A DNA stretch of 32,000 bases from Candidatus Enterocola sp. (GCA_045617165.1 JAZLIE010000152.1:1-32000); one strand, 5' to 3'. Counted from the stretch's first letter, positions 1,093-28,667 are shown. A program made the numbers and translations. Notes: generated by a model not told the origin, from the sequence alone.

Positions 1093-1093
1093 A

Positions 1094-1981: not shown

Positions 1982-2009
1982 TACATTATATGTTTTACAA
2001 TTTACAATG

Positions 2010-2017: not shown

Positions 2018-2037
2018 TGTCATCACAAACAAATTAT

Positions 2038-2059: not shown

Positions 2060-2079
2060 TATGCAAAAAAACCTGATTG

Positions 2080-2087
2080 TAATTTTG
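2080..2087 (+). promoter_or_regulatory. Bacteroidota -7 promoter box (TAATTTTG) for the FeoB-like gene
   Basis: Matches TAnnTTTG. It lies 25 nt upstream of the GTG at 2112. Confidence 0.5.
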
Positions 2088-2111
2088 TCGACATAAATGT
2101 AAATTATAATC

Positions 2112-3323: not shown

Positions 3324-3354
3324 ATTTTTTATTTGCAGAATAAAAAAATAGTTG

Positions 3355-3362
3355 TACTTTTG
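3355..3362 (+). promoter_or_regulatory. Bacteroidota -7 promoter box (TACTTTTG) for tRNA-His
   Basis: Matches TAnnTTTG. It lies 29 nt upstream of the tRNA 5' end. Confidence 0.45.
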
Positions 3363-3390
3363 TGCCGTCATTTATGTGATGACACTTTAT

Positions 3391-3467
3391 GGTGAGCGTA
3401 GTTCAGTTGGTTAGAGCATCGGATTGTGGTTCCGAGTGTCGTGGGTTCGAGTCCCACCGTTCACCCA
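3391..3467 (+). tRNA. tRNA-His (anticodon GTG)
   Basis: I folded the cloverleaf by hand. It has G-1, acceptor GTGAGCG/CGTTCAC, D-arm GTTC/GAGC, and anticodon stem TCGGA/TCCGA with loop TTGTGGT (anticodon GTG). The variable loop is GTGTC, the T-arm is GTGGG-TTCGAGT-CCCAC, and the discriminator is C. The encoded extra 5' G opposite C73 is His-specific. The 3' CCA is not fully encoded. Confidence 0.93.
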
Positions 3468-3471
3468 AAAC

Positions 3472-3510
3472 AAAAGGCTTTGGCATTTGCCAAGGCCTTT
3501 TTTGTTTTTT
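3472..3510 (+). terminator. Rho-independent terminator after tRNA-His
   Basis: The stem AAAAGGCTTTGGC / GCCAAGGCCTTTT has one G-U pair and a 4-nt loop. It is followed by TTTTGTTTTTT. Confidence 0.8.
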
Positions 3511-3515
3511 ATAGA

Positions 3516-3554
3516 CATTTTGACTAATAAAATTCCGCCATTTTGACTAATAAA
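3516..3554 (+). repeat. Two exact 16-bp direct repeats CATTTTGACTAATAAA separated by 7 bp
   Basis: The copies lie at 3516-3531 and 3539-3554. The TTTG of the second copy is about 19 nt upstream of the -7 box at 3565, which is the position of a -33 element. Confidence 0.6.
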
Positions 3555-3564
3555 GGATTTTTAT

Positions 3565-3572
3565 TATCTTTG
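3565..3572 (+). promoter_or_regulatory. Bacteroidota -7 promoter box (TATCTTTG) for the AAA ATPase gene
   Basis: Exact TATCTTTG, 27 nt upstream of the ATG at 3599. Confidence 0.55.
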
Positions 3573-3598
3573 CAATTGAAAACAACATATTGATAAAT

Positions 3599-4888
3599 AT
3601 GGATAATTCAAAATATAAAAAAAGGATTATTGATGAAATTTTAGACAAAAAACTATCAGGGATGGGGGCTGTAGTAGTTGAGGGTGCCAAATGGTGTGGA
3701 AAAACCACAACCTCCGAACATCACGCCAAAAGCGTTTTGTATATGGATTCGCCAAAGGACAGAAACAGCAATATCCAACTTGCACAATTTAATCCTGAGT
3801 TATTATTAGAGGGGGCAACTCCCAGATTGATAGATGAGTGGCAAATAGCTCCTGAATTGTGGGATGCCATTCGCTTTACCGTAGATCATCGTTCCGAAGA
3901 CGGGCAATTTATCCTAACGGGGTCAGTATCGCCAATTAGCGAAGAAAATGAATCAAAAATACTCCATTCGGGAACAGGCAGATATGCAAAGCTAAAAATG
4001 CGTCCCATGACGCTTTGGGAATCGGGTGAATCTAATGGATCTGTCAGTCTTAAAGGTTTGTTCCAAACCGATTACAAAGTTTCATCTCTCAATAACCATT
4101 CACTATCGGACATCGCATTCCTTGTATGCAGAGGTGGATGGCCTAAAGCGGTATTGCAAAAAAAAGAAATCGCTCTTGACAGAGCGTTTGACTATTATGA
4201 CACAGTAGTAAATATTGATGTCAATTTACCGGACAGAGTGGAAAAAAACGAAAATCGGGTAAAACGTCTGATGCGATCGTATGCCAGGAATCAGGGGACA
4301 CAAGCTTCATTAAGTGCCATCTGTGCTGATATGATGGCAAATGACAGCCATACACTTGATGACCGCACAGTATATTCTTATATATCAGCACTTAAAGCCA
4401 TTTATGTGATTGAAGATTGTCCTGCGTGGAATCCAAATTTAAGAAGCAAAACTGCCATAAGAACCACAGATACCCGATACTTTACAGACCCATCTATTGC
4501 CGTTGCGGCATTAGGTATTGGTCCTGATGACCTTATGCACGATTTAAATACTTTCGGTTTGCTGTTTGAAACCCTATGTATGCGTGATTTAAGGGTTTAC
4601 GCACAATCCATTGATGGTGAAATACGACATTATAGAGACAAAGATGGTTTGGAATGTGACGCTGTTGTACATCTGCGTAATGGTTCTTACGGACTGATAG
4701 AAATAAAATTGGGCGGTGAAACACTGATAGAGGATGGAGCCAAATCATTGAAAAAATTAGCATCAAAAATAGATGTTGGTAAAATGTCCGAGCCTGCTTT
4801 TTTAATGGTATTGACAGCAACGGGGCAATACGCTTTTCAACGTCCGGACGGAGTGTACGTGGTACCTGTCGGTTGCTTGAGAAATTGA
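3599..4888 (+). CDS. AAA-family ATPase with C-terminal DUF4143-like domain (COG1373-type)
   Basis: The ORF track starts at TTG 3590. I prefer ATG 3599 (MDNSKYKKR) because of the promoter spacing. The Walker A is GAKWCGKTTT and a Walker-B-like FILTGS is present. The overall layout is that of the widespread ATPase plus DUF4143 family. Confidence 0.8.
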   Translation: MDNSKYKKRIIDEILDKKLSGMGAVVVEGAKWCGKTTTSEHHAKSVLYMDSPKDRNSNIQLAQFNPELLLEGATPRLIDEWQIAPELWDAIRFTVDHRSEDGQFILTGSVSPISEENESKILHSGTGRYAKLKMRPMTLWESGESNGSVSLKGLFQTDYKVSSLNNHSLSDIAFLVCRGGWPKAVLQKKEIALDRAFDYYDTVVNIDVNLPDRVEKNENRVKRLMRSYARNQGTQASLSAICADMMANDSHTLDDRTVYSYISALKAIYVIEDCPAWNPNLRSKTAIRTTDTRYFTDPSIAVAALGIGPDDLMHDLNTFGLLFETLCMRDLRVYAQSIDGEIRHYRDKDGLECDAVVHLRNGSYGLIEIKLGGETLIEDGAKSLKKLASKIDVGKMSEPAFLMVLTATGQYAFQRPDGVYVVPVGCLRN

Positions 4889-4930
4889 AACACAACACGC
4901 CCCGACTTCCAAGTGGGCGTGTTGTTGTTT
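4888..4930. terminator. Bidirectional rho-independent terminator between convergent genes
   Basis: The stem is AAACACAACACGCCC / GGGCGTGTTGTTGTTT (11 bp, one bulge, then 4 bp). An A-run lies on the 5' side and a T-run on the 3' side. Confidence 0.8.
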
Positions 4931-4937
4931 TACTATC

Positions 4938-5372
4938 TTACTCTGAGCGAACCCACGTTTGGGAGCGTCCTATGAGTCCTAATTTGTCAATGGAACCACG
5001 CAGGGTTACAGTGTTTTTATCGGCATTGTATGATATTTTTCCGTAGTAGGTCTTCTTGCTCTCAGGGTCATAGCAACGCCCTTTGAGGTCTTTGCCCGCA
5101 GGTTCCAAATCTCTGAGTATAACCATTCCTATAACGCCCTCATAGCCGGCAGGTGATTCAGTAAGAGTGGTATATGTACCATCACCGTTTGGGGCGTAGA
5201 GGCACAGTATTTTACCATAATATTTGCCGTTCACAGCCTTGTATATGTAAACCGTACTGCGTTTGTCACCGCTCTTGTCATCAACGCTATCCCATTTTCC
5301 AAGCATCTTATCTACCTGCGCCCCTGCACTAAGTGCAACCAGCAACAACGCAACTAACAACCGTACCTTCAT
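4938..5372 (-). CDS. DUF2147 domain-containing exported protein
   Basis: 144 aa with signal peptide MKVRLLVALLLVALSAGAQ. The motifs GKWDSVDDKSGDKRSTVYIY..NGKYYGKI and RGSIDKLGLIGRSQTWVR are typical of DUF2147. Confidence 0.75.
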   Translation of the reverse strand: MKVRLLVALLLVALSAGAQVDKMLGKWDSVDDKSGDKRSTVYIYKAVNGKYYGKILCLYAPNGDGTYTTLTESPAGYEGVIGMVILRDLEPAGKDLKGRCYDPESKKTYYGKISYNADKNTVTLRGSIDKLGLIGRSQTWVRSE

Positions 5373-5384
5373 ATTAATTATTAA

Positions 5385-5837
5385 TTATAATTCCGCTTTG
5401 TAGTATTCAAGTATTGGCGAAGCCGCTATTGATGTGATTATATAGTCAGCCATAGAATCCTTGAACGCCTCTTTGAAGCGTTTGAGAGCATCAGGCAAAT
5501 CCTCTGCACGCACAAGAAGTGTCTCTGGTACAAGACGCTCTGTGCCGCTGTTCTCATCAACAACTGTAATCTTTATCTTGACTGTGAACCAATTCTCACA
5601 AAGGTCGTCATCTTTGAAGATAAGTTCAGCAAGACGTGCCTGTTTTATATTTGTGATAACATACTCACCCTTTATATATTGGGCAACCTCTTTTACAATT
5701 ATAGCCTCTGCCTCAGTAAAACTCAGCGCATCAACCAAATATACCTCATTAACCTTTTTCAGTTTTCCACAATCCTTGTCATTAGGGTCGGTTATCTGCT
5801 TCTCATAACGAATCTTGCATTCAAAATATTTTGCCAT
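5385..5837 (-). CDS. Small conserved Bacteroidota protein (DUF4494-like)
   Basis: 150 aa beginning MAKYFECKIRYEKQ, with YLVDALSFTEAEA. The family assignment is from memory only. Confidence 0.55.
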   Translation of the reverse strand: MAKYFECKIRYEKQITDPNDKDCGKLKKVNEVYLVDALSFTEAEAIIVKEVAQYIKGEYVITNIKQARLAELIFKDDDLCENWFTVKIKITVVDENSGTERLVPETLLVRAEDLPDALKRFKEAFKDSMADYIITSIAASPILEYYKAEL

Positions 5838-5856
5838 AGTTTTAATAATTTTATGG

Positions 5857-5864
5857 CAAAGATA
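5857..5864 (-). promoter_or_regulatory. Bacteroidota -7 promoter box (TATCTTTG on minus strand) for the DUF4494/DUF2147 unit
   Basis: The plus-strand caaagata lies 20 nt upstream of the ATG at 5837. Confidence 0.55.
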
Positions 5865-5876
5865 GGGAAAAATTTG

Positions 5877-5884
5877 TAATTTTG
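5877..5884 (+). promoter_or_regulatory. Bacteroidota -7 promoter box (TAATTTTG) for prfC
   Basis: Matches TAnnTTTG, 19 nt upstream of the ATG at 5903. It is divergent from the box at 5857-5864. Confidence 0.55.
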
Positions 5885-5902
5885 TGACGCAATTTTTCCC
5901 CT

Positions 5903-7480
5903 ATGAATTTTACAGAAGAGATAAACCGCAGGCGTACCTTTGCCATAATATCGCACCCAGATGCAGGTAAGACCACACTTACTGAGAAACTGTTGCTTTT
6001 TGGAGGCGCCATACACGTGGCAGGTGCGGTTAAAAGCAATAAGATTAAGAAGACAGCCACCTCAGACTGGATGGAGATAGAGAAGCAGAGAGGTATCTCT
6101 GTAGCCACATCTGTTATGGGTTTTGAGTACCGTGATTTCAAAATAAACATTCTTGACACTCCTGGTCACCAAGACTTTGCAGAGGATACCTTCCGCACCC
6201 TTACAGCCGTTGACAGCGTTATAATAGTTATTGATTCAGCAAAAGGTGTTGAGACTCAGACTCGCAAACTTATGCAGGTCTGCCGTATGCGTAAGACCCC
6301 TGTAATGGTCTTTATGAATAAGATGGACCGTGAGGGGCGTGACCCTTTTGACCTTATGGATGAGGTTGAGGCTGAACTTGGAATAAAAGTCCGCCCTCTG
6401 AGTTGGCCTATAAATATGGGACAGAACTTCAAGGGTGTCTACAACATTTACAAAGAGGATTTGAACCTCTATACTCCAAACAAACAGACAGTCTCAGAGA
6501 CTATTGAGTTCAAAGATTTGAACAGCAAGGAGTTGGAGAATTACATCGGGGAAAAAGACGCCGCAAAACTGCGTGAGGATTTGGATTTGATTCAAGGTGT
6601 CTATAATCCGTTCAATGTAGATGAATATTTGAAGGGAGACCTTGCCCCCGTATTCTTTGGCAGTGCCTTGAATACTTTTGGTGTAAAGGAGTTGCTTGAC
6701 TGTTTTGTTGAAATAGCCCCTTCACCACGCCCTGTTGAGGCTATTGAACGCCGTGTAGACCCGCTTGAACCTGCATTCTCTGGCTTTGTGTTCAAAATTC
6801 ATGCTAATATGGACCCCAACCACCGCTCATGCATAGCTTTTGTAAAGATATGCAGCGGTAAGTTTGAACGCAATGTAAACTACAAGCACGTAAGGTTCAA
6901 CCGTCTGATGAAATTTGCCGCCCCTACGGCATTTATGGCACAACGTAAAGAGACCGTAGATGAGGCATACGCAGGTGACATAGTGGGATTACCTGATAAC
7001 GGAAACTTCAAGATTGGAGACAGCCTCTCTTCTGGTGAGGATATTCATTTCAAGGGACTGCCGAGTTTCTCTCCTGAAATGTTCAAATACATAGAGAACG
7101 CAGACCCTATGAAGCAGAAGCAACTGCAAAAGGGCATAGACCAACTTATGGACGAGGGTGTGGCTCAACTATTCACAAACCAATTCAACGGACGCAAGAT
7201 TATAGGTACCGTAGGTCAGTTGCAGTTTGAGGTTATTCAGTACCGTCTGCTACACGAATATAACGCCCAATGCCGTTGGGAGCCTATTCGCCTTTACAAG
7301 GCGTGCTGGATTGAGAGTGATGACGCCACTGAACTTGAAAATTTCAAGAAACGCAAGTACCAATATATGGCTAAGGACAAGGAGGGGCGTGACGTATTCC
7401 TTGCTGACTCATCATATATGCTTGAGATGGCACAAGAGGATTTCAAGAAAATACGTTTCCATTTTACCTCAGAGTTCTAA
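5903..7480 (+). CDS. prfC: Peptide chain release factor 3
   Basis: 525 aa. The translational GTPase motifs are [25 protein letters not shown] and NKMD. The full-length layout and RF3-specific C-terminal region are present. Confidence 0.95.
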
Positions 7481-7486
7481 TCCCGC

Positions 7487-7510
7487 ATCACCGAATCACC
7501 GAATCACCAT
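7487..7510. repeat. Short tandem repeat ATCACCGA x2 plus a partial copy
   Basis: atcaccga atcaccga atcaccat, in the prfC-S1 gene spacer. Confidence 0.6.
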
Positions 7511-7515
7511 CAATA

Positions 7516-8355
7516 ATGCAAATAGGAAAAACTCAAATATTGAAAGTAAACCGACACGCAGAGGCGGGAGTGTATTTAGCAGATGCGAATGGCACTGAAA
7601 TTTTATTACCGAACAGGTATGTGCCTGAAATCTGCCATATAGGAGACACATTAGAGGTGTTTGTTTACACCGATGGCGAAGATAGACCCATAGCCACCAC
7701 TGTCAAACCATTCGCAGAAATCGGACAGTTTGCGTTGATGACAGTCAAGCAAATTACTGATTTTGGAGCCTTCCTTGATTGGGGCATAATGAAAGACCTG
7801 CTTGTTCCGTTCAGTGAGCAGAGAGGAGATTTAAACGAAGGTGACAAGGTGTTCGTCTATGTATATGAAGACAGCGTCACGCACCGTGTAGTGGCGTCGG
7901 CACGTTGGGAGAAATTCATTAACCCCGATGTCTCATCACTGAAACACGGGCAAAAGGTAACCCTTACCATTGCCTCAAAGAGTGATTTAGGATTCAAGGT
8001 GATTATTGACGGCACCTATAAAGGACTGATTTTCAACAGTGATGTATGCCGTCCCTTGAAAATCGGGGATAAGACAGAAGGATACATTTACAAAGTACGT
8101 GATGACGGCAAGGTTGATGTACGTTTGAAGAGCGAGGGGTATGAGAGCATAAGCGGAGAGGCGGAGAAAATTCTTTCAAAACTGAAGGCAGAGGGAGGTT
8201 TCATAGCCGTCACAGACAAGTCATCGCCCGAACTGATAAATGAACTTTTTGGTATGAGCAAAAAGACCTACAAGAAAGCGGTGGGAGACCTATATAAGAG
8301 GCACATTGTAGCGTTATATTATAATGGTCTTAAGTTATTGATAAATAAGAAATAA
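7516..8355 (+). CDS. S1 RNA-binding domain protein (CvfB/YitL family)
   Basis: 279 aa with repeated S1-like beta-barrel segments. The C-terminal winged-helix-like tail is SKKTYKKAVGDLYKRHIV. Confidence 0.75.
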   Translation: MQIGKTQILKVNRHAEAGVYLADANGTEILLPNRYVPEICHIGDTLEVFVYTDGEDRPIATTVKPFAEIGQFALMTVKQITDFGAFLDWGIMKDLLVPFSEQRGDLNEGDKVFVYVYEDSVTHRVVASARWEKFINPDVSSLKHGQKVTLTIASKSDLGFKVIIDGTYKGLIFNSDVCRPLKIGDKTEGYIYKVRDDGKVDVRLKSEGYESISGEAEKILSKLKAEGGFIAVTDKSSPELINELFGMSKKTYKKAVGDLYKRHIVALYYNGLKLLINKK

Positions 8356-18388: not shown

Positions 18389-18658
18389 ATGGCAAAATTC
18401 ACTAACATACCACATTCCGCAAATGTTAATAAGTCGGCGGATATGGACTATCGTTATGTGCATTTTGCCGTAATGGCAATAGAGTCTGGTGCTCAGAAAA
18501 TGAACATCTCGGGCAAACAGATGCATGACCGTTTACAAAAGCAGGATTTAATACATCGTCGCCTCTTTGGCCGCTACGAAGAGTTGCATAGTCAGTCGCT
18601 GCAATATGTAACGGATGACATAGTGGAAACACTTCAAAATTGGGAAGCTGCACAATGA
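18389..18658 (+). CDS. DUF3791 domain-containing protein
   Basis: 89 aa with the motifs YVHFAVMAIESGAQKMNISGKQMHDRL and GRYEELHSQS. Its stop overlaps the next ATG (ATGA). Confidence 0.7.
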   Translation: MAKFTNIPHSANVNKSADMDYRYVHFAVMAIESGAQKMNISGKQMHDRLQKQDLIHRRLFGRYEELHSQSLQYVTDDIVETLQNWEAAQ

Positions 18659-19155
18659 GAATATTTCATGGTTCAGATAGTATAGTAGATGCTCCCAAAA
18701 CTAATTTCGGTCGCAAAAACCTAGACTTCGGTTGTGGTTTCTATGTCACTAAATTGGAGAAGCAGGCTTCCAAGTGGGCTTTTGCTGTCGCCGAACGTAA
18801 AGGACCGTACTCTCCCGCCATTCTCAATGAGTATGAATTTGATTACGAAGCCGCAGTAAGTCGGTTTCGTATATTGTGCTTTGAGACATATAATCTGGAC
18901 TGGTTGGAATATGTGGTGGCATGCCGTAGGGGAAAACCTATATGGAAAGACTACGATATAATTGAAGGTGGTGTTGCTAATGATAATGTAATTGATACCG
19001 TGGAGGATTATGAGAATGGTCGTATAACGGCAGAACAAGCACTTGATCAATTACGGTTTAAGAAACCGAATCATCAGATTTGTATTATCAATCAGGATGT
19101 TGTTGATTTGTATATACAATTTGTACAACATAGAGTTTTGAAGGAAAAGGTATGA
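18655..19155 (+). CDS. DUF3990 domain-containing protein (possible H-Y-E ADP-ribosyltransferase-like fold)
   Basis: It starts at MRIFHGS (ATG 18655, overlapping the upstream TGA). The motifs are IFHGS, FGCGFYVT and DIIEGGVAND. Its stop overlaps the next ATG (ATGA). Confidence 0.7.
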   Translation: MRIFHGSDSIVDAPKTNFGRKNLDFGCGFYVTKLEKQASKWAFAVAERKGPYSPAILNEYEFDYEAAVSRFRILCFETYNLDWLEYVVACRRGKPIWKDYDIIEGGVANDNVIDTVEDYENGRITAEQALDQLRFKKPNHQICIINQDVVDLYIQFVQHRVLKEKV

Positions 19156-19358
19156 GAGATGCGGTTAAATGGCGCAAGCAGAGCCGACTGATTATGATGT
19201 TGGCAGAGTGGAAAGGTATCGCTCCTGAAGTGGCATTGGATTTGTTTTATACAACTAATACCTACCGTCTCCTCTGTAATCCTGCAACTGGTCTTGAACT
19301 GATGTCTGATGCATATATATTTGCCGACTTGCAAGAAGAGTTAAATGGAATAAAATAA
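19152..19358 (+). CDS. DUF3791-like small protein
   Basis: 68 aa with the motifs IMMLAEWKGIAPEVALDLFYTTNTYRLL and LELMSDAYIFADL. It is the usual third member of the DUF3791/DUF3990 triplet. Confidence 0.6.
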   Translation: MRDAVKWRKQSRLIMMLAEWKGIAPEVALDLFYTTNTYRLLCNPATGLELMSDAYIFADLQEELNGIK

Positions 19359-19528
19359 GCCACGCCGTGGGATGCTACCAATATAGGGTATGTCGTATCG
19401 GGCGGTGGTAGCAGGTGAAAATCCTGCAAAGACATATTAAAAGCGTTTATTGACGCTCTGTTCTGGCTTTCAGAAATCTCGCAAATTTATGTAAGAATCA
19501 GGACTTAGCAGCGATGAATGTCTATGGG

Positions 19529-19708
19529 GTATGTAGCACCCTGCACTACAACATATTATCACATGTACAAGCGTGTGAAATTTGTTGGATATATAGTGCA
19601 GCCATACATATTCGGCGTGGACTTCGCGTTGTCAGTTCTATTCTTACGGGCAACGCGAGAGCCTCTGAAAGCGTGGACTGACAACAGAGTGAGTTCCACG
19701 CTTTTTTT
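19529..19708 (+). ncRNA. Candidate structured RNA (leader or sRNA) ending in an intrinsic terminator
   Basis: There is no credible ORF here. I checked these helices by hand: GTATG/CATAC plus CTGCACTA/TAGTGCAG (19529-19607); CGCGTTG/CAACGCG (19625-19657); GTTGTCAG/CTGACAAC (19628-35 with 19678-85). GCGTGGAC occurs twice (19615, 19671) and either copy can pair with TCCACGC (19695-19701), which precedes a T7 run. Confidence 0.35.
19670..19708 (+). terminator. Rho-independent terminator
   Basis: An 8-bp stem AGCGTGGA/TCCACGCT with a 17-nt loop is followed by TTTTTTT (19702-19708). Confidence 0.65.
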
Positions 19709-19761
19709 ATGTCCATAGAATAGATGATTCTATTGATTATTAACCAAATAAAACAATTGCT

Positions 19762-21432
19762 ATGAAAACAAAAATCTTTCAACGAGGTGCATTTATGTGT
19801 CTATGTCTCGTTATGTTATTACCGAGCTCATGCTCAAAGTCTTTAAAACAAATAATTGCAGATGTTGAGCCTGCAACATTTATCGTCTATACATACGATG
19901 AATATGGTTCCCCTTCTGGTTCTGGATCGGGCTTCTTTATAGAACCAAGTGGAGTTGGAGTAACCAACTGGCATGTGTTAGACAAATCTGTAAAGGCTGT
20001 GATTAAGACTCCAACTGGAAAACAATTTGAGATAGATAGTGTTCTTTGTGCTTCTGCTAAAAAGGATATACTTGTCTTTCGAATAAAGAACAATGATGGA
20101 TCCAAGTTTAGTACTATATCATTCAGTAAAACAAAACCAGAAAAAGGTACACCTGTATATAATATTAGTGCACCTATGGGTATGGAATCGAGTGTGTCGG
20201 AGGGTATTGTAGCATCTTATCGTGAAGATGGACACGGTGAAATCGTACAAACAACTGCACCGATTTCTCCTGGATCAAGCGGAAGCCCATTGCTTACGGA
20301 CAAGGGCGAAGTATTTGCAATTGCAACATTTAAGCGTAGAGGAGGTGAAAATATGAACTTTGGTGTAATTATGACAGAAAACTTCCGTCAAGAGTTAGAT
20401 GGAAAAGAATTTTACAAAAAAAATAGAAAATTCAATTCAGGAAAGTCTGATTTGGTTCTGCTGAATATTTTACCTGATAAAGGTGCTGATATTATGCTCA
20501 ATGCGATTGAGTTCGGTCCAACAGCAACTACCCTATATTTAACTTACACTAACATGCATTTAACGAATAGTGATGGTGGCTGGATGATTTGGTGTGAGTT
20601 GAATAAGAAGGATAAGGGATTCTTTATTGAGGATAAGGATACCAAACAAAGATATTATGTTTCGTCTTCTACTCTTGAATCCGACAAAGAAAGATCAAAG
20701 ACAATAGGATTAGCTGAGATTCTCCAATTTAAAGTATATTTTCCTGTAATAAAGAATAAGCCTACCAATATCGATGTAATGTGGGGAGAGGATGACCGCA
20801 GTTATCATTTTACGGACATAAATTTGGATGATTATCGCAACAATCTCAATTTTGATGAACTAGGTTATCAGCGTGCCTATGCGCTATCTTGCACTACCGA
20901 TGCTGGTGACTTTGCAATGACAATATCTATGTTATCAGATATTTTGGAGGAAAACCCATCGGATGTGATATCTCTTAACATGATGGCTATTCTATCTCAT
21001 GTGTTGTCTAACAATACTGATGCAATGTATTATCTAGAGGAGGCGATTAATCAAAACCCTAATGATGAATTGGCTTATCTTAATCGTTCGCAAATGTATG
21101 CCAATTCAGAGAATTACAAAGAAGCAATTAACGACCTAACTTCTGCAATCAATCTTGCACCTGGTCAACCTGACTATTATTTCCAACGTGCGTGGTACTA
21201 TTACTTAATCGAGGATTATCAAAATTCATTAACAGATCTTAATACTTGCTTGGATAAATCAGAGAAAGAAGATGGCTTTGAGGATAGTGGTTACTTTTAT
21301 GAATTGCGAGGCTATGTCAATTATCACTTGAATAACAAAAAAGCAGCTCGTGCCGATTGTCAAAAAGCATACAAATTGTCAAAGGATAAAAAATTAGATC
21401 AACGTCTCCAAAATTTTTGGAGTATATTATAG
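19762..21432 (+). CDS. Lipoprotein: trypsin-like (S1/S1C) serine protease domain, unknown middle domain and C-terminal TPR repeats
   Basis: 556 aa. The signal peptide has a Cys (LLPSSC, C24). The catalytic triad context is TNWHV (H71), KKDILVF (D102) and PGSSGSPLL (S173). Residues ~230-370 are unassigned. TPR-like units run from ~380 to the end (AYLNRSQMY, YYFQRAWYY). Confidence 0.85.
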   Translation: MKTKIFQRGAFMCLCLVMLLPSSCSKSLKQIIADVEPATFIVYTYDEYGSPSGSGSGFFIEPSGVGVTNWHVLDKSVKAVIKTPTGKQFEIDSVLCASAKKDILVFRIKNNDGSKFSTISFSKTKPEKGTPVYNISAPMGMESSVSEGIVASYREDGHGEIVQTTAPISPGSSGSPLLTDKGEVFAIATFKRRGGENMNFGVIMTENFRQELDGKEFYKKNRKFNSGKSDLVLLNILPDKGADIMLNAIEFGPTATTLYLTYTNMHLTNSDGGWMIWCELNKKDKGFFIEDKDTKQRYYVSSSTLESDKERSKTIGLAEILQFKVYFPVIKNKPTNIDVMWGEDDRSYHFTDINLDDYRNNLNFDELGYQRAYALSCTTDAGDFAMTISMLSDILEENPSDVISLNMMAILSHVLSNNTDAMYYLEEAINQNPNDELAYLNRSQMYANSENYKEAINDLTSAINLAPGQPDYYFQRAWYYYLIEDYQNSLTDLNTCLDKSEKEDGFEDSGYFYELRGYVNYHLNNKKAARADCQKAYKLSKDKKLDQRLQNFWSIL

Positions 21433-21438
21433 TCCATT

Positions 21439-22584
21439 ATGATGAAACGATTTCCTATTTTAATCTTATTGATTATATGTCCCTATCTCCATGCCCAAGT
21501 GACGATTCGGTCTTCATTAGCATGGAGCCAATCCTTTAGTACTGGTTCGTGGACAAATAATGAAGGGCTAACATACTCATCTACTGCTTGGGGTGATACA
21601 TATTACAATCCAAAGTGGCAAGATATGAGTAAGCAGACTTCTATTCAATCAAGCAGTATTTGGAGATATTACAATGTCGGTCCTTCAAATAAGCGAAATT
21701 GGACATTCACCCTCCCGATTAATAACCTAAATGCAGAAAAAAATCATTATTATTATACTAATGCAAACCCTAGTTTAAAGCAACAGTCTCACCAAATCTA
21801 TTGGGGTATTTCTATCGGAATGATGATTGATGGTGTGGAGAAGAATGTTTATTTCTGGATGTCTCGTAGTGCAAGAGATTACTATTATGATGGAACACCA
21901 ACATATACTAGTGAAAACTATCTCTCATGCTCTGTAGAAAAGGGTGGTTGGACAACAACGAGCCATGTTTATCCGTCTTGTTCTCAAAGTGCAACAACAT
22001 CACTCTATATAGAATCTTCGACATATGGTCAGACAACTATTAAATGGGATGGATTTCAAATAACAAGTGTACCGTATTATGTGAGTAAAATCACGTATGT
22101 GAAGGTTATGGTTGGAACTCAGGCAAAAATTCAATTAGGCAAGGCTTCAGCATATAGTGGAGCTCCTATAGGCAGTACCTATGATGGTTCTGATCTTATG
22201 GAAAAAGAGCAATATAGCGCAGCAATTTCGAAACTCTATCAATCTTCTGGAGTTTATTTGGAAAAACCAGCTTTGAATTTAGCCTTTTGCTATTTGATAA
22301 CTGGGCAGCCTGATAAATGTATAGAGATGGCATCTGCTCTTGTTAAATATAACGGAGAAACTATTTCGTATGCGTATTATCTCCGTGGAATGGCACGAGA
22401 GAATAAATCTAACTACTTGGATGCATTAGAAGATTATCGATTAGCAGGAAGCGTTGCAACTGACGAATATAATAGATTATACAACACTATCTATAGTTCT
22501 AATAAGTCCGTGCAGACTAACAATAGTCAACAGAAAAAACAACAGTCAACACAACAAAATACAAAACCCGCATTAACAAGATGA
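21439..22584 (+). CDS. Exported hypothetical protein with TPR-like C-terminal region and Gln-rich tail ending KPALTR
   Basis: 381 aa with signal peptide MMKRFPILILLIICPYLHAQ. The N-terminal ~230 aa are rich in S/T/Y/W and look like beta-structure. It lies 6 nt after the protease gene, and its stop overlaps the next ATG (ATGA). Confidence 0.7.
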   Translation: MMKRFPILILLIICPYLHAQVTIRSSLAWSQSFSTGSWTNNEGLTYSSTAWGDTYYNPKWQDMSKQTSIQSSSIWRYYNVGPSNKRNWTFTLPINNLNAEKNHYYYTNANPSLKQQSHQIYWGISIGMMIDGVEKNVYFWMSRSARDYYYDGTPTYTSENYLSCSVEKGGWTTTSHVYPSCSQSATTSLYIESSTYGQTTIKWDGFQITSVPYYVSKITYVKVMVGTQAKIQLGKASAYSGAPIGSTYDGSDLMEKEQYSAAISKLYQSSGVYLEKPALNLAFCYLITGQPDKCIEMASALVKYNGETISYAYYLRGMARENKSNYLDALEDYRLAGSVATDEYNRLYNTIYSSNKSVQTNNSQQKKQQSTQQNTKPALTR

Positions 22585-23771
22585 AAAAGATAATATTAAT
22601 ATTCCTATCTTGTGTTTCTGTCGCTGCTTCAGCACAACATAAGACAAAATATACGTATAATATCACTTTAGGATGGAATGACACAATTCAAACGACATTA
22701 TGGATTCGTCAAAATCCATTTGAAGATTACGAAAAATCCTTGACTGCTCAATATGGTCAGTCAATTAAGTCGCAAATATCGGAGTTGCTCTCAGATGATG
22801 ATGTCAAGCGTATTGTAGATAGTGAAATAGATTATTACCAAGACCGACTTTTAAGTAATTCCTTTTACAATACAACGGCAACCAAGGAAAAACAAAAAAT
22901 AGATAATCGCTTAGCGAATCCGAATGTTTTACGTATGGAATTGGAAAAGGATATTGTTGAAATGGTAGGACAAAACATAAACCATCAGTATAAGAATGAC
23001 TATCAATGTTTTGGTTGGAATCTATGGAAATACAATTCTCTATTTCATCTTAAAGTAAAGAATCTAGCATTCAGAAATGCGTTGTACAATAAGGCCGTGG
23101 AAGTCTTATGTAAATTAGCGGCTTATTACCCTAAGGATTATCGTACCCATCTTGTTTCTGCGTTTTCCGAGTCGCTAAAGGTGTTAGATGACATTGCGTC
23201 GGGAAAACATTCGTACACAATACAGACAGATGAAAGCAAAAACTGGAAACCATTGGTGATTTTTGTAGATGGAGTTCCTGATATAGAACTTGGTTATGGT
23301 ATTACTGGTTTCCTTTTGCGTCGCGTGTATATGGATAACATACCATTGTCAGAGGTGAGAACTAAAACAATTTCTTTGATTGCAAAGTTAAAAGCCGTTG
23401 ATAACTCAAAAAATGACAATATTATGAGTAAATATGTGATAAACAATGAAATTGCTTTTTGTGTGGGAGCCAGTCGAAATTTTTTTGTGTCTTTAGCATC
23501 CAACAAGGAATTCGTTCCGTTCATTAGCGAATATGAGCAGAATTATTATGGAAATACCATTTTTACACGATACAACAATGGTCAAGTATTCTATCAAATC
23601 GAAAATGGTTATACGTGGCAAACAGAATTGAAAACTATAGTTCTTGACAAGTACTTTAATGTCATATATCATGAACCGTTGTCCCTCTCTCAACCAATTC
23701 AAATAAAGACACTACAGTCACAACAAAATCCATCTCCCCAACAAAACAGCAAATCAACATTGACACGATGA
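22581..23771 (+). CDS. Exported hypothetical protein with Gln-rich tail ending KSTLTR
   Basis: 396 aa with signal peptide MKKIILIFLSCVSVAASAQ. The composition looks mostly helical and I recognise no family. Confidence 0.7.
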   Translation: MKKIILIFLSCVSVAASAQHKTKYTYNITLGWNDTIQTTLWIRQNPFEDYEKSLTAQYGQSIKSQISELLSDDDVKRIVDSEIDYYQDRLLSNSFYNTTATKEKQKIDNRLANPNVLRMELEKDIVEMVGQNINHQYKNDYQCFGWNLWKYNSLFHLKVKNLAFRNALYNKAVEVLCKLAAYYPKDYRTHLVSAFSESLKVLDDIASGKHSYTIQTDESKNWKPLVIFVDGVPDIELGYGITGFLLRRVYMDNIPLSEVRTKTISLIAKLKAVDNSKNDNIMSKYVINNEIAFCVGASRNFFVSLASNKEFVPFISEYEQNYYGNTIFTRYNNGQVFYQIENGYTWQTELKTIVLDKYFNVIYHEPLSLSQPIQIKTLQSQQNPSPQQNSKSTLTR

Positions 23772-23884
23772 AAGACCAACATGTTCTGATAGTATTGTTT
23801 GCTCTATTCTGTCCCTTCGTGAACTTTAATTTAAATAACACTAATTTCAAAGGACTTTTATTTTATGGTGTCAGAAATAGCTAA
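23768..23884 (+). CDS. 38-aa micro-ORF (MKDQHVLIVLFALFCPFVNFNLNNTNFKGLLFYGVRNS), possibly a vestigial signal-peptide gene start
   Basis: I translated this by hand; it is below the ORF-track cutoff. The ATG overlaps the upstream stop (ATGA), as at the 22581 junction. The N-terminus is hydrophobic. Confidence 0.25.
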   Translation: MKDQHVLIVLFALFCPFVNFNLNNTNFKGLLFYGVRNS

Positions 23885-23911
23885 TAATTTTTTAAACAAA
23901 CTATTGTATCT

Positions 23912-26287
23912 ATGAAAACTGTTATTTTTTCTTATAATCCGTATTTGGTACAGACAAGTATCATAGTAGACGGACAAACTCCCGACTGTGAGAATTTACA
24001 AGTTTCACAAGGTGTTCGCTTACAAGAATGGGTAGAGGAGCTTCCTAAGATTCTCGCCAAAGAGTATAATGACAAGATTGATTTGCGTTTTATTGGAACG
24101 AAAATTGATTTTGAGGATGTACGCGTAGCATTCAAAGAGAGTGGCATTGCATATACTTTGACATTAGAGGAAGAAAAAGAGGATGTTGATGCGGCAGAGA
24201 AAACGATTGACAGAATCTTTAAAGACATTCAAAGTGGACCAATAGCTGATCTAAAGACCAAAGGAATAAGAGATACCTTTAAGAAAGCTAAATCCTCCGA
24301 GTTCGAGGTAAATGTAGTGGCAACTATGAGTTCTGGGAAGTCAACACTTATCAATGCTTTATTGGGACGCAAACTGATGCCAGCAAAAAATGAGGCCACA
24401 ACAGCTACAATTGTTAAAATCAAGGATGTAGATGGAAAGAAAGATTTCTCTGCGGTGGCCTATGATCGTAACCATAAGGTAGTTGAACACTTTGAGAAAG
24501 TAACTCTCAAGGATATGCAAAGACTTAACGATAACGAACGAATTTATTATATTGATATTGAGGGTGATATCAAGTTTGTTTCTTCTGAAGGTATGAGTCT
24601 TGTTCTTGTAGATACTCCAGGACCTAACAATTCTCGAGATTTGCATCATCAAGAAATGACTTTTAAGATGTTGGAGAATTCTGATAAGTCGCTGGTGCTT
24701 TTCGTAATGAATGGAAGACAATTAGGTATCAACGATGAAAAGATTTTCTTGGATTTTATCTGCTCTAACATGAAGAAGGGAGGAAAAAAGACCCGAGATC
24801 GCTATATATTTGCAGTTAATCAGTTGGATGCATTTAAACCTAATCCTGATGATGATGGGGAAGAATGCATCCAAAAAGCCCTTGATTCGGCAAGAGCAAG
24901 CCTAAACGAAAGGGGAATAAAAGATGCGAATATCTTCCCAGTTTCTGCTGGAGTTGCCTTGGAAAAACGTATAGACGACGAAGATGAAGAATTAATGCGT
25001 CCTTTCTATAAGAAATCGAAGAAGTATGCAGCAATGCGATTTAATGAATACAAAGAGTTTACACATTTACCGCAATCTGTACTAGAACAGATGAAATCTC
25101 ATATGGAGGAATTGGATGATAAAGACAAGGTGGAGTATTATTCAGGCATCTGTAGTATAGAAGAAGCTATACGTCTATACATCAACAAATATGCTCGTAC
25201 GACAAAGGTTTGTGACCTTGTTTTGTCGTTTAACAGCCAGCTAACCGAGTTGGCTACAATGGCTCGGATAGAAGATAGTATTCGCAAGGATGCAAGTTTT
25301 AAGCGTCAGTTAAATGAAGAGATTGAAAAGGCAAAGAAACTTATCTCTGATTCGAAGTTAACACAAGAGTTTACATCAAATGTATATAATACTAACTATA
25401 CCGCTGAGACAGAGCGTGATATAGCATATGCTATTAGTGATGCTAAAACTCAGTTTAGAGACTTGGTTAAAGGAAAGAGTTATAAAGTGGACTTGAAACA
25501 AGCCGAAGCTCAAAGTCAAAGCATTTGTCGTCAGTATGACCAATGCGCCGCACAAATCAATGTCCGCATAAATAGCATCATTCAAAACTCCTTCAAGAAA
25601 AGCCTATCTCAAGTTATCTCACAATATGTTAGGCACTTGTCAATTTTAGGAATCACTCCTCAATCTTTGAATCTGTCTACATATTCTGGAATAACCGTTT
25701 CTGCACCGAACATGCAGAAAAAAATGGGAGATAACAAGAAAACATATGATGAAAGTTATATTGTTGATGAAGAGTATCGTGTGAAGGTAGATTCAACAAA
25801 GGGACGAAATGGATGGATAGGCACAACTACGATGGCTGGTGTGGGAGCTACTATTGGCTCTGTAATACCAGTAATTGGTACTGCTGCTGGTGCCTTCTTT
25901 GGTGGTCTTATCGGACTAATCGCAGGCCGATCTTTCGGTCATGATGAATATTATGAAACAAAATATCGTCCAAAGAAGATTGAAAAGTACGTTGACTACG
26001 TTAACATGCATGAAGTCGCAACTTCAGCATCTCATGACTTTGATATCAAAATGAATGAGTTGGAAGATCGTGCTCGTTCATATATTAACGACGAAAACGA
26101 GCGTCTTAAGAAAAGTATTAAAGAGAAAATAAACGAAGTTGATACTTTGATGCTTAAGAAGTTGAATGATTTGCAGACAATGCAGAATCGTGATAAAGAA
26201 ACGGCAGAAGAAATTGCCCGTAAGACATCGGAAAAAGAATGGTTGGAGAGCATACAAAAACGTGTTAATGACCTGATTAATTTCTGA
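23912..26287 (+). CDS. Dynamin-family large GTPase (bacterial dynamin-like protein) with a glycine-zipper membrane hairpin
   Basis: 791 aa. G1 is ATMSSGKST (K143), the G2 region is NEATTATIV, G3 is DTPG and G4 is NQLD. A long helical stalk follows. The hydrophobic Gly-rich segment is GWIGTTTMAGVGATIGSVIPVIGTAAGAFFGGLIGLIAGRSF (about nt 25810-25940). The C-terminus is coiled-coil-like. An unassigned N-terminal domain of ~110 aa precedes the GTPase. Confidence 0.85.
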   Translation: MKTVIFSYNPYLVQTSIIVDGQTPDCENLQVSQGVRLQEWVEELPKILAKEYNDKIDLRFIGTKIDFEDVRVAFKESGIAYTLTLEEEKEDVDAAEKTIDRIFKDIQSGPIADLKTKGIRDTFKKAKSSEFEVNVVATMSSGKSTLINALLGRKLMPAKNEATTATIVKIKDVDGKKDFSAVAYDRNHKVVEHFEKVTLKDMQRLNDNERIYYIDIEGDIKFVSSEGMSLVLVDTPGPNNSRDLHHQEMTFKMLENSDKSLVLFVMNGRQLGINDEKIFLDFICSNMKKGGKKTRDRYIFAVNQLDAFKPNPDDDGEECIQKALDSARASLNERGIKDANIFPVSAGVALEKRIDDEDEELMRPFYKKSKKYAAMRFNEYKEFTHLPQSVLEQMKSHMEELDDKDKVEYYSGICSIEEAIRLYINKYARTTKVCDLVLSFNSQLTELATMARIEDSIRKDASFKRQLNEEIEKAKKLISDSKLTQEFTSNVYNTNYTAETERDIAYAISDAKTQFRDLVKGKSYKVDLKQAEAQSQSICRQYDQCAAQINVRINSIIQNSFKKSLSQVISQYVRHLSILGITPQSLNLSTYSGITVSAPNMQKKMGDNKKTYDESYIVDEEYRVKVDSTKGRNGWIGTTTMAGVGATIGSVIPVIGTAAGAFFGGLIGLIAGRSFGHDEYYETKYRPKKIEKYVDYVNMHEVATSASHDFDIKMNELEDRARSYINDENERLKKSIKEKINEVDTLMLKKLNDLQTMQNRDKETAEEIARKTSEKEWLESIQKRVNDLINF

Positions 26288-26289
26288 TT

Positions 26290-27258
26290 ATGCCATATTC
26301 AGAAGTTGAATTTTCTTCAGATAGAGTAAAACTAAGAAAGGGGGAAAACGAGAGGGCTGTGCTTTCATGGAATGCTCAAGGTGCGTCATCTGTGACTCTT
26401 TCGGCTCCCTCGTTGTCTCTATCTGTTAATTCAGAAGGGAACTATGTAGTTTCTCCAGAGCAAACTACGACATATAAATTAGTTGCAACATATCCTGATG
26501 GCTCAACACAAACAAAGCACATGCAGATAGAGATTCATCCGGCGGCATATTTGTCTTATGATGTTGTAGAACATATTGATGGAGATAATGTCTCTGCCGA
26601 ACTGATGTGGAGCATTGAAAATGCACAAAATGTACAAATTGATGGTGTGTTGGTTCCTTCAAAAGGTTTCAAAAGCTATTTAATCAATCATCAAGTGTAT
26701 GCACAAATCCAATATGATGATCCTTTCGGATCTCATAGCAAAACTATATGCATATGTCAGGAGAATAAATCGTTTTGGGTCTTATTGAAAGTCGTAAAAC
26801 TTCTGCTACGTCCGTTCACCTTTATTGGATTTGTAGGGAAAAAAGAGATGCGTTGGACTATTAGATTGTGTTTTATTGGTATTGCTTCCACATTGGGTAT
26901 CTTTATTGCCAATAATTCTTCAATGATAGAACAAAATGAATGGCTTCAACTGTTTAATGGGCATGACTTCTTTAGGGCACGTAATATTCTAAGCGTGTTC
27001 TTATACATTTGGATGATGCAACTAGGTAAACGCTGGAAAGACACTAATATATCACAATGGTGCGTATTGCTTTTTGTTCCATTAATTGTGTTTTTATGGA
27101 TACCAATAGGTATTTTAGTAAGCACTTTTGATACAGATTACGTTTTACTATACGCCTTATGGACTGAATACTTGGGATTATTTTGGTTGACATCATTAAT
27201 AGTTGCATGCATGAACTCTAAACATAAGCAAAAATATCAAAAGATAAAGGTCTGGTAA
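26290..27258 (+). CDS. Membrane protein: two tandem Ig-like/beta-sandwich repeats and a C-terminal multi-TM DUF805-like domain
   Basis: 322 aa, starting 2 nt after the dynamin stop. The repeats are VLSWNAQGASSVTLS...TTTYKLVA and ELMWSIENAQNVQIDG. There are four or more hydrophobic segments from residue ~160. The motif GKRWKDTNISQWCVLLFVPLI resembles the DUF805 RRLHD..SGWW..L..P signature. No N-terminal signal peptide is evident. Confidence 0.7.
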   Translation: MPYSEVEFSSDRVKLRKGENERAVLSWNAQGASSVTLSAPSLSLSVNSEGNYVVSPEQTTTYKLVATYPDGSTQTKHMQIEIHPAAYLSYDVVEHIDGDNVSAELMWSIENAQNVQIDGVLVPSKGFKSYLINHQVYAQIQYDDPFGSHSKTICICQENKSFWVLLKVVKLLLRPFTFIGFVGKKEMRWTIRLCFIGIASTLGIFIANNSSMIEQNEWLQLFNGHDFFRARNILSVFLYIWMMQLGKRWKDTNISQWCVLLFVPLIVFLWIPIGILVSTFDTDYVLLYALWTEYLGLFWLTSLIVACMNSKHKQKYQKIKVW

Positions 27259-27281
27259 TCATTTTTTGCTTAAACAATAAA

Positions 27282-27320
27282 GTGTAAACTCGAAGCGTTT
27301 TGAGATTACACTATTCTTTT
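27282..27320 (+). terminator. Probable rho-independent terminator closing the five-gene cluster
   Basis: The stem is GTGTAAACTC / GAGATTACAC (9 of 10 paired), followed by TATTCTTTT. Confidence 0.5.
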
Positions 27321-27608: not shown

Positions 27609-28331
27609 ATGAATATAGCTGAATCTGATTCTATTGTAGAGATTTTAGAGCATGTCTTGTTGACCGCCTCAAATTCGCCGTGCCTACCATCCAAATCCAA
27701 TGAAAGGGAGAAACTTTTGCTGACATTGTATCACGTGTTACTTGGCGAAAAACAAACAACAAGTGGACTGATTCCCATCTGTATGAACGAGCAAATGGGA
27801 GCAGATATAAAGAAATTGGAAGATAGCATTCAAAGTTCTTGTCACTGTCCTTTTCTTAAGCAAGCGATGTCGTACTTTATTAGCGAATTGATTTGTAACG
27901 TAGAGCAACATGCTGGGGTAGAACAAGGCTATGGCATAGTACATTATTCCGCCAAGAGTAATAGACTGCTTGTAGGCATAGCAGACGGTGGTATTTCTAT
28001 CTATGGAAGTTATGTTCGTGCACAAAAATATTTGGCGGAGGTTGGCAATAGTGATGCACAAGCACTTTATCTTGCTCAAAATGGATATTCTACAAAGAAC
28101 CTACCTAATGCAGAGAATCGTGGATATGGCATTTCCTCTAATTCTCGGATGATAGTAGATGGATTAGGCGGCACATTCGCCATTTTGTCCGGTAATGCAC
28201 TATATTATCATTCTGCACAAAGCAAGCGTATATTTGCCCTTCCTGAAGATTTTGTTTGGCCTGGCACCTTGGTCCTGGCAGATATTTCCGTTGAAGAAAG
28301 GAAATTTAGTTTATATGATTATATTGGTTGA
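27609..28331 (+). CDS. GHKL/HATPase_c-like ATP-binding protein (RsbW/SpoIIAB-like serine kinase fold)
   Basis: The N-box is ELICNVEQHA, the G1-like motif is IADGGISIYG and the G2-like motif is NRGYGISS. The ORF-track TTG at 27588 is only 4 nt past the -7 box, so I prefer ATG 27609 (MNIAESD). Confidence 0.65.
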   Translation: MNIAESDSIVEILEHVLLTASNSPCLPSKSNEREKLLLTLYHVLLGEKQTTSGLIPICMNEQMGADIKKLEDSIQSSCHCPFLKQAMSYFISELICNVEQHAGVEQGYGIVHYSAKSNRLLVGIADGGISIYGSYVRAQKYLAEVGNSDAQALYLAQNGYSTKNLPNAENRGYGISSNSRMIVDGLGGTFAILSGNALYYHSAQSKRIFALPEDFVWPGTLVLADISVEERKFSLYDYIG

Positions 28332-28334
28332 AAT

Positions 28335-28667
28335 ATGAAACATTTACTTAAAATAGCAGACCAATTTGGAACAGAGTTTCGCACTCGTTCGCTTGTGGAA
28401 CGATTGGGGGCTTCGCTTGTGCCGAAAGATGAATATATGTTCGATATGTCCGGCATTGAATTGATTTCTCGTTCTGCCGCTGATGAATTGTATAATATCT
28501 CTATGTCTCATCATGTAGAGATTATTCACATGACTCCTTTTGTGCAACAGATGTATGATGCAGTCAAATTAGGGCGATTTCAACCTCGCCAGCATTTGAG
28601 TAGCGATGTAGAGTTTATCCAATGCACAGACTTGCACTCCTTGAGTGCTCTCGTGCAGAAAATATAA
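28335..28667 (+). CDS. STAS-like DUF4325 domain protein
   Basis: 110 aa starting 3 nt after the ATPase stop. The motif FDMSGIELISRSAADELYNI is the DUF4325 signature (DF.GV..IS.SFADE). Confidence 0.65.
   Translation: MKHLLKIADQFGTEFRTRSLVERLGASLVPKDEYMFDMSGIELISRSAADELYNISMSHHVEIIHMTPFVQQMYDAVKLGRFQPRQHLSSDVEFIQCTDLHSLSALVQKI

Follow-up and report, generated by a model that had tools for sequence, protein, structure and literature searches.

Probable juxtaposition of a rare exported protease trio and a solo dynamin-like GTPase pair in a variable island of Candidatus Enterocola sp.

Introduction

Bacterial dynamins mostly occur as pairs encoded in one operon, and their activity often depends on both members of the pair (PMC6104087; PMC4159319). 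They have been linked to membrane stress (PMC6104087), and a dynamin pair protects Bacillus subtilis from jumbo phages (10.1101/2022.05.11.491447). Here, a gene cluster that includes a dynamin-like GTPase was analyzed in a 32,000-nucleotide stretch of DNA from Candidatus Enterocola sp. (GCA_045617165.1 JAZLIE010000152.1:1-32000), referred to throughout as the window. The GTPase (P4) is the product of the fourth of five genes on the plus strand. Genes 1-3 encode a serine protease-tetratricopeptide repeat (TPR) lipoprotein (P1) and two proteins that are predicted to be exported (P2 and P3), and gene 5 encodes a membrane protein with two immunoglobulin-like (Ig-like) domains and a DUF805-type domain (P5). 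The window encodes one Dynamin_N protein, and the adjoining genes encode P3, a signal-peptide protein, and P5. Given that published dynamins are mostly paired and that P4 lacks such a partner, P4 is an unusual solo derivative, and P5 is its clade-specific partner.

A first-pass annotation had treated the five genes as a single envelope-spanning module with no match among described systems. The latter point is upheld here; the former is not. The cluster probably consists of two accessory modules that evolved independently and came to lie side by side in a variable island, and is not one system: a rare exported trio (genes 1-3, module A) and a solo dynamin/Ig-DUF805 pair (genes 4 and 5, module B), both of which are uncharacterized. 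Reading the cluster as one machine would misdirect experiments, and splitting it gives two testable units.

Results

Co-occurrence and divergence of the five genes

ORF calling in the window gave the five open reading frames (ORFs) as first described, all on the plus strand, with inter-ORF gaps of 6, -4 (ATGA), 140, and 2 nt. A scan with a dynamin alignment, in which one genome was taken per species, yielded 80 loci, and a metagenome scan yielded 80 more. The dynamin-bearing loci compared number 171, comprising 158 at ≤50% and 13 at >50% identity to P4. The 80 genome loci come from Bacteroidales, Treponema, Brachyspira, clostridia, Bacillus, Pseudomonas, Shewanella, Acinetobacter, Vibrio, and Helicobacter, and relatives of P1, P2, P3, and P5 were found in none of them. 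Homologues of P1, P2, and P3 were also found in none of the 80 metagenome loci, where a P5-like gene was present in two close relatives.

Among the 171 loci, the trio and the dynamin occur together only in contig L088, the dynamin of which is 92% identical to P4 and which carries all five genes in the same arrangement. Co-occurrence of the five homologues in other genomes, which the first-pass annotation had put forward as a check, was not found beyond the window and L088. The dynamin and a P5-like gene, with no trio, were observed in L081 (69% identity), L089/90 (70%), L101 (70%), and L102 (68%), and a dynamin without P5 in L082-84 (64%), L085-87 (54%), and L091 (about 68%). An intact P1-P2-P3 trio is present in L092, L093, L094, L096, and L097-L100, with P3 39-83% identical to that of the window. 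In these five other trio lineages, dynamin and P5 were not found, and the genes 3′ of the trio vary, encoding YkuD, a 472-aa protein, a Sel1-repeat protein, a TIR protein, or lipoproteins.

Alignment of the window with L088 revealed a step within the cluster. Nucleotide identity is 97-99% from 19435 to ∼23930; past this point, it is 80-88% across the dynamin and 68-78% in distal P5. Synonymous divergence (dS) is 0.045, 0.066, and 0.060 for P1, P2, and P3, respectively, versus 0.92 for P4 and 0.75 for P5, which places genes 4 and 5 ∼15-fold above genes 1-3. The ratio of nonsynonymous to synonymous divergence (dN/dS) is 0.04-0.18 in all five genes, and thus both halves are under purifying selection. 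The step in dS implies that the dynamin/P5 allele was exchanged independently of the trio.

These data bear on the proposal of a single envelope-spanning machine made up of all five genes, in which the dynamin would act with the periplasmic proteins in a damage response, defense, or vesiculation. Such a machine would be in keeping with the common strand, the tight spacing within each half, the arrangement kept in L088, and the placement of both halves, in other contigs, behind the same RNA leader (see below). The 140-nt gap before gene 4 contains neither a TAnnTTTG promoter box nor a terminator-like site, and therefore co-transcription of the five genes is possible; a TAnnTTTG box is likewise missing from the 300 nt that precede gene 1, and the next downstream gene (27609) has a textbook one. 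Co-transcription would not alter the verdict of separate evolutionary histories. Against a single machine stand the restriction of co-occurrence to one near-identical relative, the 15-fold difference in dS between the halves, and the gene overlapping the P3 stop codon, which changes in each other trio locus. In addition, the soluble domains of P5 are predicted to be cytoplasmic, so that nothing of module B would reach the periplasm. A single machine is, accordingly, considered highly improbable.

Module A: a protease-TPR lipoprotein and two exported proteins

Gene 1 (19762-21432, plus strand) encodes P1, a 556-aa HtrA-like S1 protease and TPR lipoprotein. Its protease domain (residues ∼30-205; Pfam Trypsin_2, E = 6.7e-24) is followed by a middle domain and by C-terminal TPRs (∼370-556; TPR_2, E = 6.3e-12). 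The catalytic triad, H71, D102, and S173, is placed in the expected motifs, which bears out the original description of this protein. The lipobox Cys ([ST]-S-C) is conserved in six of six homologues. Matches to PDB sequences were to HtrA/DegP and covered the protease domain only; a PDZ domain was not found with Pfam, and the score against the Do family of NCBIfam (TIGR02037) was 70.4 bits, for a cut-off of 416.2. The sole PADLOC match, RT-Protease_XI, also covers the protease domain alone. Homologues of P1 in the five other trio lineages are 70-87% identical.

Genes 2 (21439-22584) and 3 (22581-23771), also on the plus strand, encode P2 (381 aa) and P3 (396 aa), respectively. Both have N-terminal hydrophobic signals that end in A-Q and are predicted to be exported; together with the conserved lipobox of P1, these signals agree with the three exported products assigned initially. 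P2 consists of a beta-rich N-terminal part and a TPR-like C-terminal part, the latter with weak Pfam matches below threshold, and has a Q/N/S-rich linker. The P2 family is rare (32 representatives at E ≤ 1e-3 among 1.84 billion), and in the trio loci inspected, its members always lie between homologues of P1 and P3.

The P3 family is very rare, with 10 clusters among 5.8 billion proteins, and P3 gave zero matches in Pfam, NCBIfam, and PADLOC. The AlphaFold model of P3 (predicted local distance difference test 81.8, predicted template modeling score 0.74) comprises a helical bundle, an alpha/beta domain, and a disordered Q-rich tail; this predicted fold had no match in the PDB at E ≤ 0.001. P2 and P3 are unrelated to each other in sequence and predicted fold. 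The idea that P3 is a diverged form of the short GTPase that precedes other dynamins (see below) was rejected because P3 carries a signal peptide, lacks a P-loop, differs in predicted fold, and shows no similarity to those proteins by BLAST.

Inside the 140-nt gap between genes 3 and 4 lies a 38-aa micro-ORF (MKDQHVLIVLFALFCPFVNF...; 23768-23884, plus strand), the ATG of which overlaps the stop codon of gene 3, so that the coupled micro-ORF noted earlier was recovered. Given that a full-length gene overlaps the P3 stop codon alike, by 4 nt, in other trio loci (96, 167, 143, and 467 aa), the micro-ORF may be what remains of the start of a fourth gene that was displaced. Two candidate relatives were compared with it and rejected: no significant sequence similarity was found to the start of the fourth gene in other trio loci or to the 66-72-aa Gly-rich membrane ORFs that occur beside solo dynamins.

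P2 and P3 have in common the motif K-P-x-L-T-[K/R], placed at the extreme C terminus after a variable Q/N/S-rich stretch. In the window, P2 ends in KPALTR and P3 in KSTLTR, and the regions encoding the tag with its low-complexity linker are 22495-22584 (P2) and 23685-23771 (P3). Among P2 representatives, 12 of 15 end in KPxL[TSK][KR], down to 28% identity, and the tag is found in eight of the ten P3 family members. The pattern P.L[TSK][KR]$ ends 16 of 8845 ORFs in 180 loci, and all but one of these 16 are P2 or P3 proteins. L095, the sole P3 homologue without a neighboring P1, is also without the tag.

TPR domains that bind C-terminal peptides are exemplified by PEX5-PTS1 and Hop-EEVD. The TPR domain of P1 would similarly dock the C-terminal tags of P2 and P3, and the outcome would be either a protease complex built up in the periplasm or the presentation of P2 and P3 to be processed. 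For a lipoprotein that combines a protease with TPRs, this is a simple hypothesis: one C-terminal tag, common to both exported proteins, is read by the TPR domain.

Module B: a solo dynamin-like GTPase

Gene 4 (23912-26287, plus strand) encodes the 791-aa P4, which matches Pfam Dynamin_N with 65.8 bits against a threshold of 27 (E = 6.2e-18). The protein is built of an N-terminal domain of ∼120 aa, the G domain, a predicted helical stalk, and a hydrophobic hairpin of the Gly-zipper type. The hairpin spans 29 residues (aa 644-672), and its glycines are invariant in 15 relatives; the earlier call of a dynamin-like protein with a Gly-zipper hairpin is thereby confirmed. The G motifs are ATMSSGKS(T), DTPG, and NQLD; the P-loop is intact, and GKS, DTPG, and NQLD are invariant in relatives. 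The only PDB sequence match was Nostoc BDLP (2J68; E = 0.001, G domain only). No PADLOC match, including to LeoA or LeoBC, was obtained at E ≤ 0.01.

The setting of P4 differs from that of its wider family. A short dynamin-like GTPase (335-460 aa) is encoded directly upstream in 142 of the 158 relatives at ≤50% identity, most exceptions being at contig ends, and the gene downstream of most of these distant dynamins encodes a protein of ∼175-300 aa with a C-terminal hydrophobic anchor. The upstream GTPases form one BLAST cluster and the downstream tail-anchored proteins another; they are present in 69 of the 80 genome loci. Four Bacteroidales loci were inspected (L105, L110, L120, and L130), and in each of them the gene for the tail-anchored protein is succeeded by a further large gene, the ∼1150-aa product of which in L120 matches DUF87/HerA, FtsK, and mad8. 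Members of the paired operon gave weak LeoBC/LeoA matches (E 7e-5 to 6.5e-10; LeoBC 20-37 bits). One example of the paired-dynamin operon lies at 6969-14619 of L120, and the operon loci are among L001-L080 and L103-L180.

Neither the short GTPase nor the tail-anchored partner was found in any of the 13 loci at >50% identity or in the window. These loci, together with the window, form a single split in a neighbor-joining tree of 156 dynamins. The solo clade descends from the paired-dynamin operon, with loss of the partners. Module B is, in this sense, a natural experiment in how a dynamin of a normally paired type can function solo, given a membrane hairpin of its own and a partner of a new kind. 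The parent operon spans Bacteroidales, spirochaetes, clostridia, and gamma-proteobacteria and lies outside current defense-system profiles. A Gly-rich membrane protein of 66-72 aa recurs up- or downstream of solo-clade dynamins (L085, 9731-9940; L089, 1778-1996; L101, 3674-3874); it has no counterpart in the window.

The Ig-DUF805 partner of the dynamin

Gene 5 (26290-27258, plus strand) encodes the 322-aa P5. In the AlphaFold model, two beta-sandwich domains precede four helices, and Foldseek matched the beta domains to tandem Ig domains with a probability of 1.0. DUF805 (PF05656) was matched by six of six family members, with a best E of 3.2e-10; the window copy itself scored 16.7 bits, below the cut-off of 25.7. 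These results accord with the tandem Ig domains and, at the level of the family, with the DUF805 membrane architecture proposed initially. The family comprises six clusters among 5.8 billion, and all P5 homologues found lie immediately 3′ of a dynamin of the solo clade (L081, L088, L089/90, L101, and L102). P5 was also considered as a relative of the tail-anchored protein encoded downstream of distant dynamins; this was rejected since the two show no similarity and fall into separate clusters.

In P5, basic residues are concentrated ahead of helix 1, in the stretch between helices 2 and 3, and at the C terminus, and by the positive-inside rule, the Ig domains are therefore predicted to face the cytoplasm. 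With this topology, genes 4 and 5 would encode an inner-membrane/cytoplasmic pair that forms no bridge to the periplasm. Downstream of gene 5, the closing hairpin of the original description was found at 27281-27312 (plus strand) as a weak terminator-like structure (-13.9 kcal/mol, z = -2.8), with a T-rich stretch directly after it.

Purifying selection on P4 is strong (dN/dS = 0.044, window versus L088) and could point to a more ordinary role, in which module B would carry out housekeeping or stress-related membrane repair of the DynA or mycobacterial IniA type and module A would be an envelope quality-control protease with accessories. The association of bacterial dynamins with membrane stress and the protease domain of P1, which is closest to HtrA/DegP, are consistent with such a role. 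However, the families are rare and patchy, as the cluster counts for P3 and P5 illustrate, and are located in low-GC variable islands and integrative elements; the allele was replaced between close strains; and P1 falls far under HtrA family cut-offs and is without a PDZ domain. Nor were the genes seen as conserved core genes at a fixed chromosomal position across a genus. A housekeeping function for the two modules is therefore unlikely.

A structured RNA upstream of the cluster

The reading of the cluster as two independent modules raises the matter of how they became adjacent, on which a structured RNA-like element upstream of gene 1 is informative. The element (19424-19716, plus strand; roughly 300 nt) has a minimum free energy of -120 kcal/mol (z = -10 versus shuffles) and ends in an intrinsic terminator, a hairpin and T-run that lies ∼50 nt before the start codon of gene 1. 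Its conserved sequence may reach 5′ to ∼19362. No match was obtained among 4227 Rfam covariance models at the gathering score, nor at E ≤ 1 with relaxed filters. In an 11-sequence alignment, the consensus structure has 41 pairs, with 94% of cells paired, and compensatory changes were observed at 17 pairs, compared with 8.4 ± 1.8 in shuffles (0/500) and 2-7 in slid controls. One long-range helix covaries at seven of eight pairs. The many G-U pairs point to an RNA on the plus strand.

By profile search, the element was found 5′ of trios (window/L088, L092, and L098/99), of the solo dynamin of L101, and of the paired operons of L105, L110, L120, and L130. In L120 and L130, it is closely preceded by a serine resolvase gene. 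In IMG/VR contigs, it is located 5′ of an operon in L236 and beside twin tyrosine integrases in L207, L209, and L221. The L236 operon (648-8125) has four genes, encoding an EF-Tu-like GTPase, a 334-aa protein, a 648-aa protein, and a HerA-like ATPase. The 648-aa protein has an N-terminal Hsp70/actin-like motif, recognized by eye and with no Pfam match, and a weak LeoB-like C-terminal region, and the operon looks like a module-swapped analogue of the dynamin operon.

The element is read as a conserved leader at the variable-cargo slot of integrative elements. Given that both modules lie downstream of the same RNA in such elements, they would, together with other cargo, be interchangeable behind one RNA type and not parts of one machine, and a shared RNA-headed cargo slot would explain how two unrelated modules can become adjacent. 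The RNA is put forward as a candidate for a new cis-regulatory leader, or for a small RNA, located where mobile elements carry their cargo. An invariant GGCGTGGGC can pair either inside the RNA fold or with the 3′ arm of the terminator, an alternative that suggests the layout of a terminator/antiterminator switch. Four loci have a canonical Bacteroidetes TAnnTTTG box at a distance of 67-78 nt 5′ of the RNA core; the window does not.

Two other explanations of the element were rejected. An invertible promoter is contradicted by the minus-strand TAnnTTTG box of the window, which, on our reading of the alignment, is not conserved, and by the full-length RNA copies, which all have the same orientation relative to the downstream genes. 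As for a plasmid or phage sequence, the element had no match in annotated collections.

More speculatively, the RNA could represent a new leader class, in which a multi-helix sensor and a competing terminator/antiterminator gate the variable cargo of unrecognized conflict systems in Bacteroidales integrative elements. The cargoes would then be the protease trio, the solo dynamin with Ig-DUF805, the dynamin pair with tail-anchored protein and HerA-like ATPase, and the EF-Tu-like/Hsp70-like/HerA-like operon. This combined proposal, leader and cargoes together, is regarded as doubtful. If a regulatory leader is indeed involved, the RNA provides a handle on how gut Bacteroidales switch on mobile-element cargo.

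Island setting and neighboring genes

A low-GC variable island (∼18.4-28.7 kb) on a Bacteroidales chromosome contains the cluster. GC content is 0.34-0.38 over 20-28 kb versus 0.40-0.47 in the flanks, and the remainder of the window encodes housekeeping proteins, including RF3, Lon, PheS, and CvfB, so that the island is chromosomal and not on a plasmid. The horizontally acquired insertion suggested at first corresponds to this low-GC variable island, in which the cluster lies next to a candidate system resembling PDC-M13. The PADLOC profiles PDC-M13 A, B, and C match three adjacent small ORFs at 18389-19358 (E = 2.3e-13, 7.3e-48, and 1.7e-10), which encode DUF3791, DUF3990, and a 68-aa product and lie directly upstream of the RNA element. 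PDC-M13 is a candidate system for which we know of no published function.

This context raises the possibility that both modules are independent anti-phage or anti-invader systems stacked in a defense island, which is compatible with two separate modules. Module B would then resemble DynA or Eleos and seal or remodel the membrane at infection, and module A would form a periplasmic proteolytic barrier. Besides the PDC-M13-like system immediately upstream, solo dynamins have as neighbors a type I restriction-modification system and Fic (L089) or a GajB-like helicase and an Hsp70-like protein (L081), and trios neighbor a TIR protein (L096) and AAA_14/DUF4143 proteins. Both modules are cargo of integrative elements, and the taxonomic spread of the dynamin family is patchy. 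The protection of B. subtilis by a dynamin pair is a further precedent, and phage defense by DynA is reported to need membrane binding (PMC12998192). Conversely, P2-P5 have no PADLOC match, the single match of P1 is confined to its protease domain, and viral-contig scans gave no relatives of the dynamin, P3, or P5. Exported TPR proteases have many non-defense roles, and the contexts amount to about 12 loci inspected by eye. A conflict or defense role for each module is plausible from context but tentative, and we would place it somewhat short of an even chance.

Downstream of the cluster, two genes (27609-28667) encode P6 and P7, of 240 and 110 aa, behind their own canonical TATCTTTG promoter box. 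No match to either was found in Pfam, NCBIfam, PADLOC, or PDB sequences. P6 and P7 are absent from the sister contig L088, where homology to the window stops at 27525. Elsewhere in the window, positions 3392-4888 hold a tRNA-His gene and, after it, a gene for an AAA_14/DUF4143 ATPase, the family of which was also seen beside the solo dynamins of L082-84 and the trio of L094.

Discussion

The cluster is best explained by two modules with separate histories. Module A comprises a membrane-tethered HtrA-like serine protease, in which TPRs replace the PDZ domain, and two secreted proteins of unrelated folds. In module B, the Gly-zipper hairpin of a solo dynamin would hold it in the inner membrane, with a DUF805 membrane protein as its partner; the dynamin would remodel or seal this membrane in a GTP-driven manner, with P5 as an adaptor or sensor.

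Several points weigh against this interpretation. The five genes lie on one strand and may be co-transcribed, and it is possible that they have gained a joint local role. That both modules are headed by one RNA leader in other contigs could also reflect a common regulon. The sample of close-relative contexts is small, comprising 13 dynamin loci and about six trio lineages, mostly on short metagenome contigs. The P5 topology is a prediction from the positive-inside rule, and the reading of the tag by the P1 TPRs is proposed by analogy with TPR receptors of C-terminal peptides. Finally, L091 encodes a 270-aa trypsin-like protease of unrelated architecture (5363-6175), located 4 kb upstream of its solo dynamin. 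This protease is 33% identical to the P1 protease domain and lies beside an Endonuclease_NS gene; it is the only other protease-dynamin proximity seen and is probably coincidental cargo.

Comparison with described systems places the two modules differently. P1 resembles HtrA/DegP/DegQ in its His-Asp-Ser triad protease domain and envelope location. It differs from them in being a lipoprotein, in having a middle domain and TPRs in place of PDZ, in its Do score below the cut-off, and in being fixed in an operon with two tag-bearing exported proteins. The likeness to PEX5 and Hop, which serves as a lead only, is that the P1 TPR domain is encoded alongside proteins in which a flexible linker leads into a conserved motif at the very C terminus; both compartment and motif differ.

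In its G domain, neck/trunk helices, and hydrophobic membrane tip, P4 is predicted to resemble Nostoc BDLP1 and Campylobacter Cj-DLP1/2, and its additional N-terminal domain of ∼120 aa recalls the 119-aa assembly domain of Cj-DLP1 (PMC6104087). Unlike BDLP1, however, P4 would have as its tip the 29-residue Gly-zipper hairpin and not a short paddle, and it is solo, in contrast to the operon pairs in which most bacterial dynamin-like proteins function (PMC6104087). B. subtilis DynA is likewise a membrane-associated dynamin, implicated in membrane sealing and phage tolerance. By contrast with P4, DynA is a fusion of two dynamin-like units (PMC6104087), represented in NCBIfam by a model of 1187 positions, against which P4 scored 34.7 bits for a cut-off of 1600; DynA is also not known to have a DUF805 partner.

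The likeness to Eleos (LeoA/LeoBC) and to leoABC of enterotoxigenic Escherichia coli lies in the dynamin-like GTPase, the predicted helical stalk, the predicted membrane-binding region, and the island location of P4, as well as in its wider family, an operon of two dynamin-like GTPases with weak LeoBC/LeoA matches. The window nevertheless has a single dynamin with no second GTPase gene, and its Ig-DUF805 partner is not known as a part of Eleos; the parent operon also encodes a tail-anchored protein, with a HerA/FtsK-like ATPase in those Bacteroidales loci that were inspected, and neither is described for Eleos. In summary, the dynamin part is a variant on known bacterial dynamins, and the freshest leads are the C-terminal tag of the trio and the RNA.

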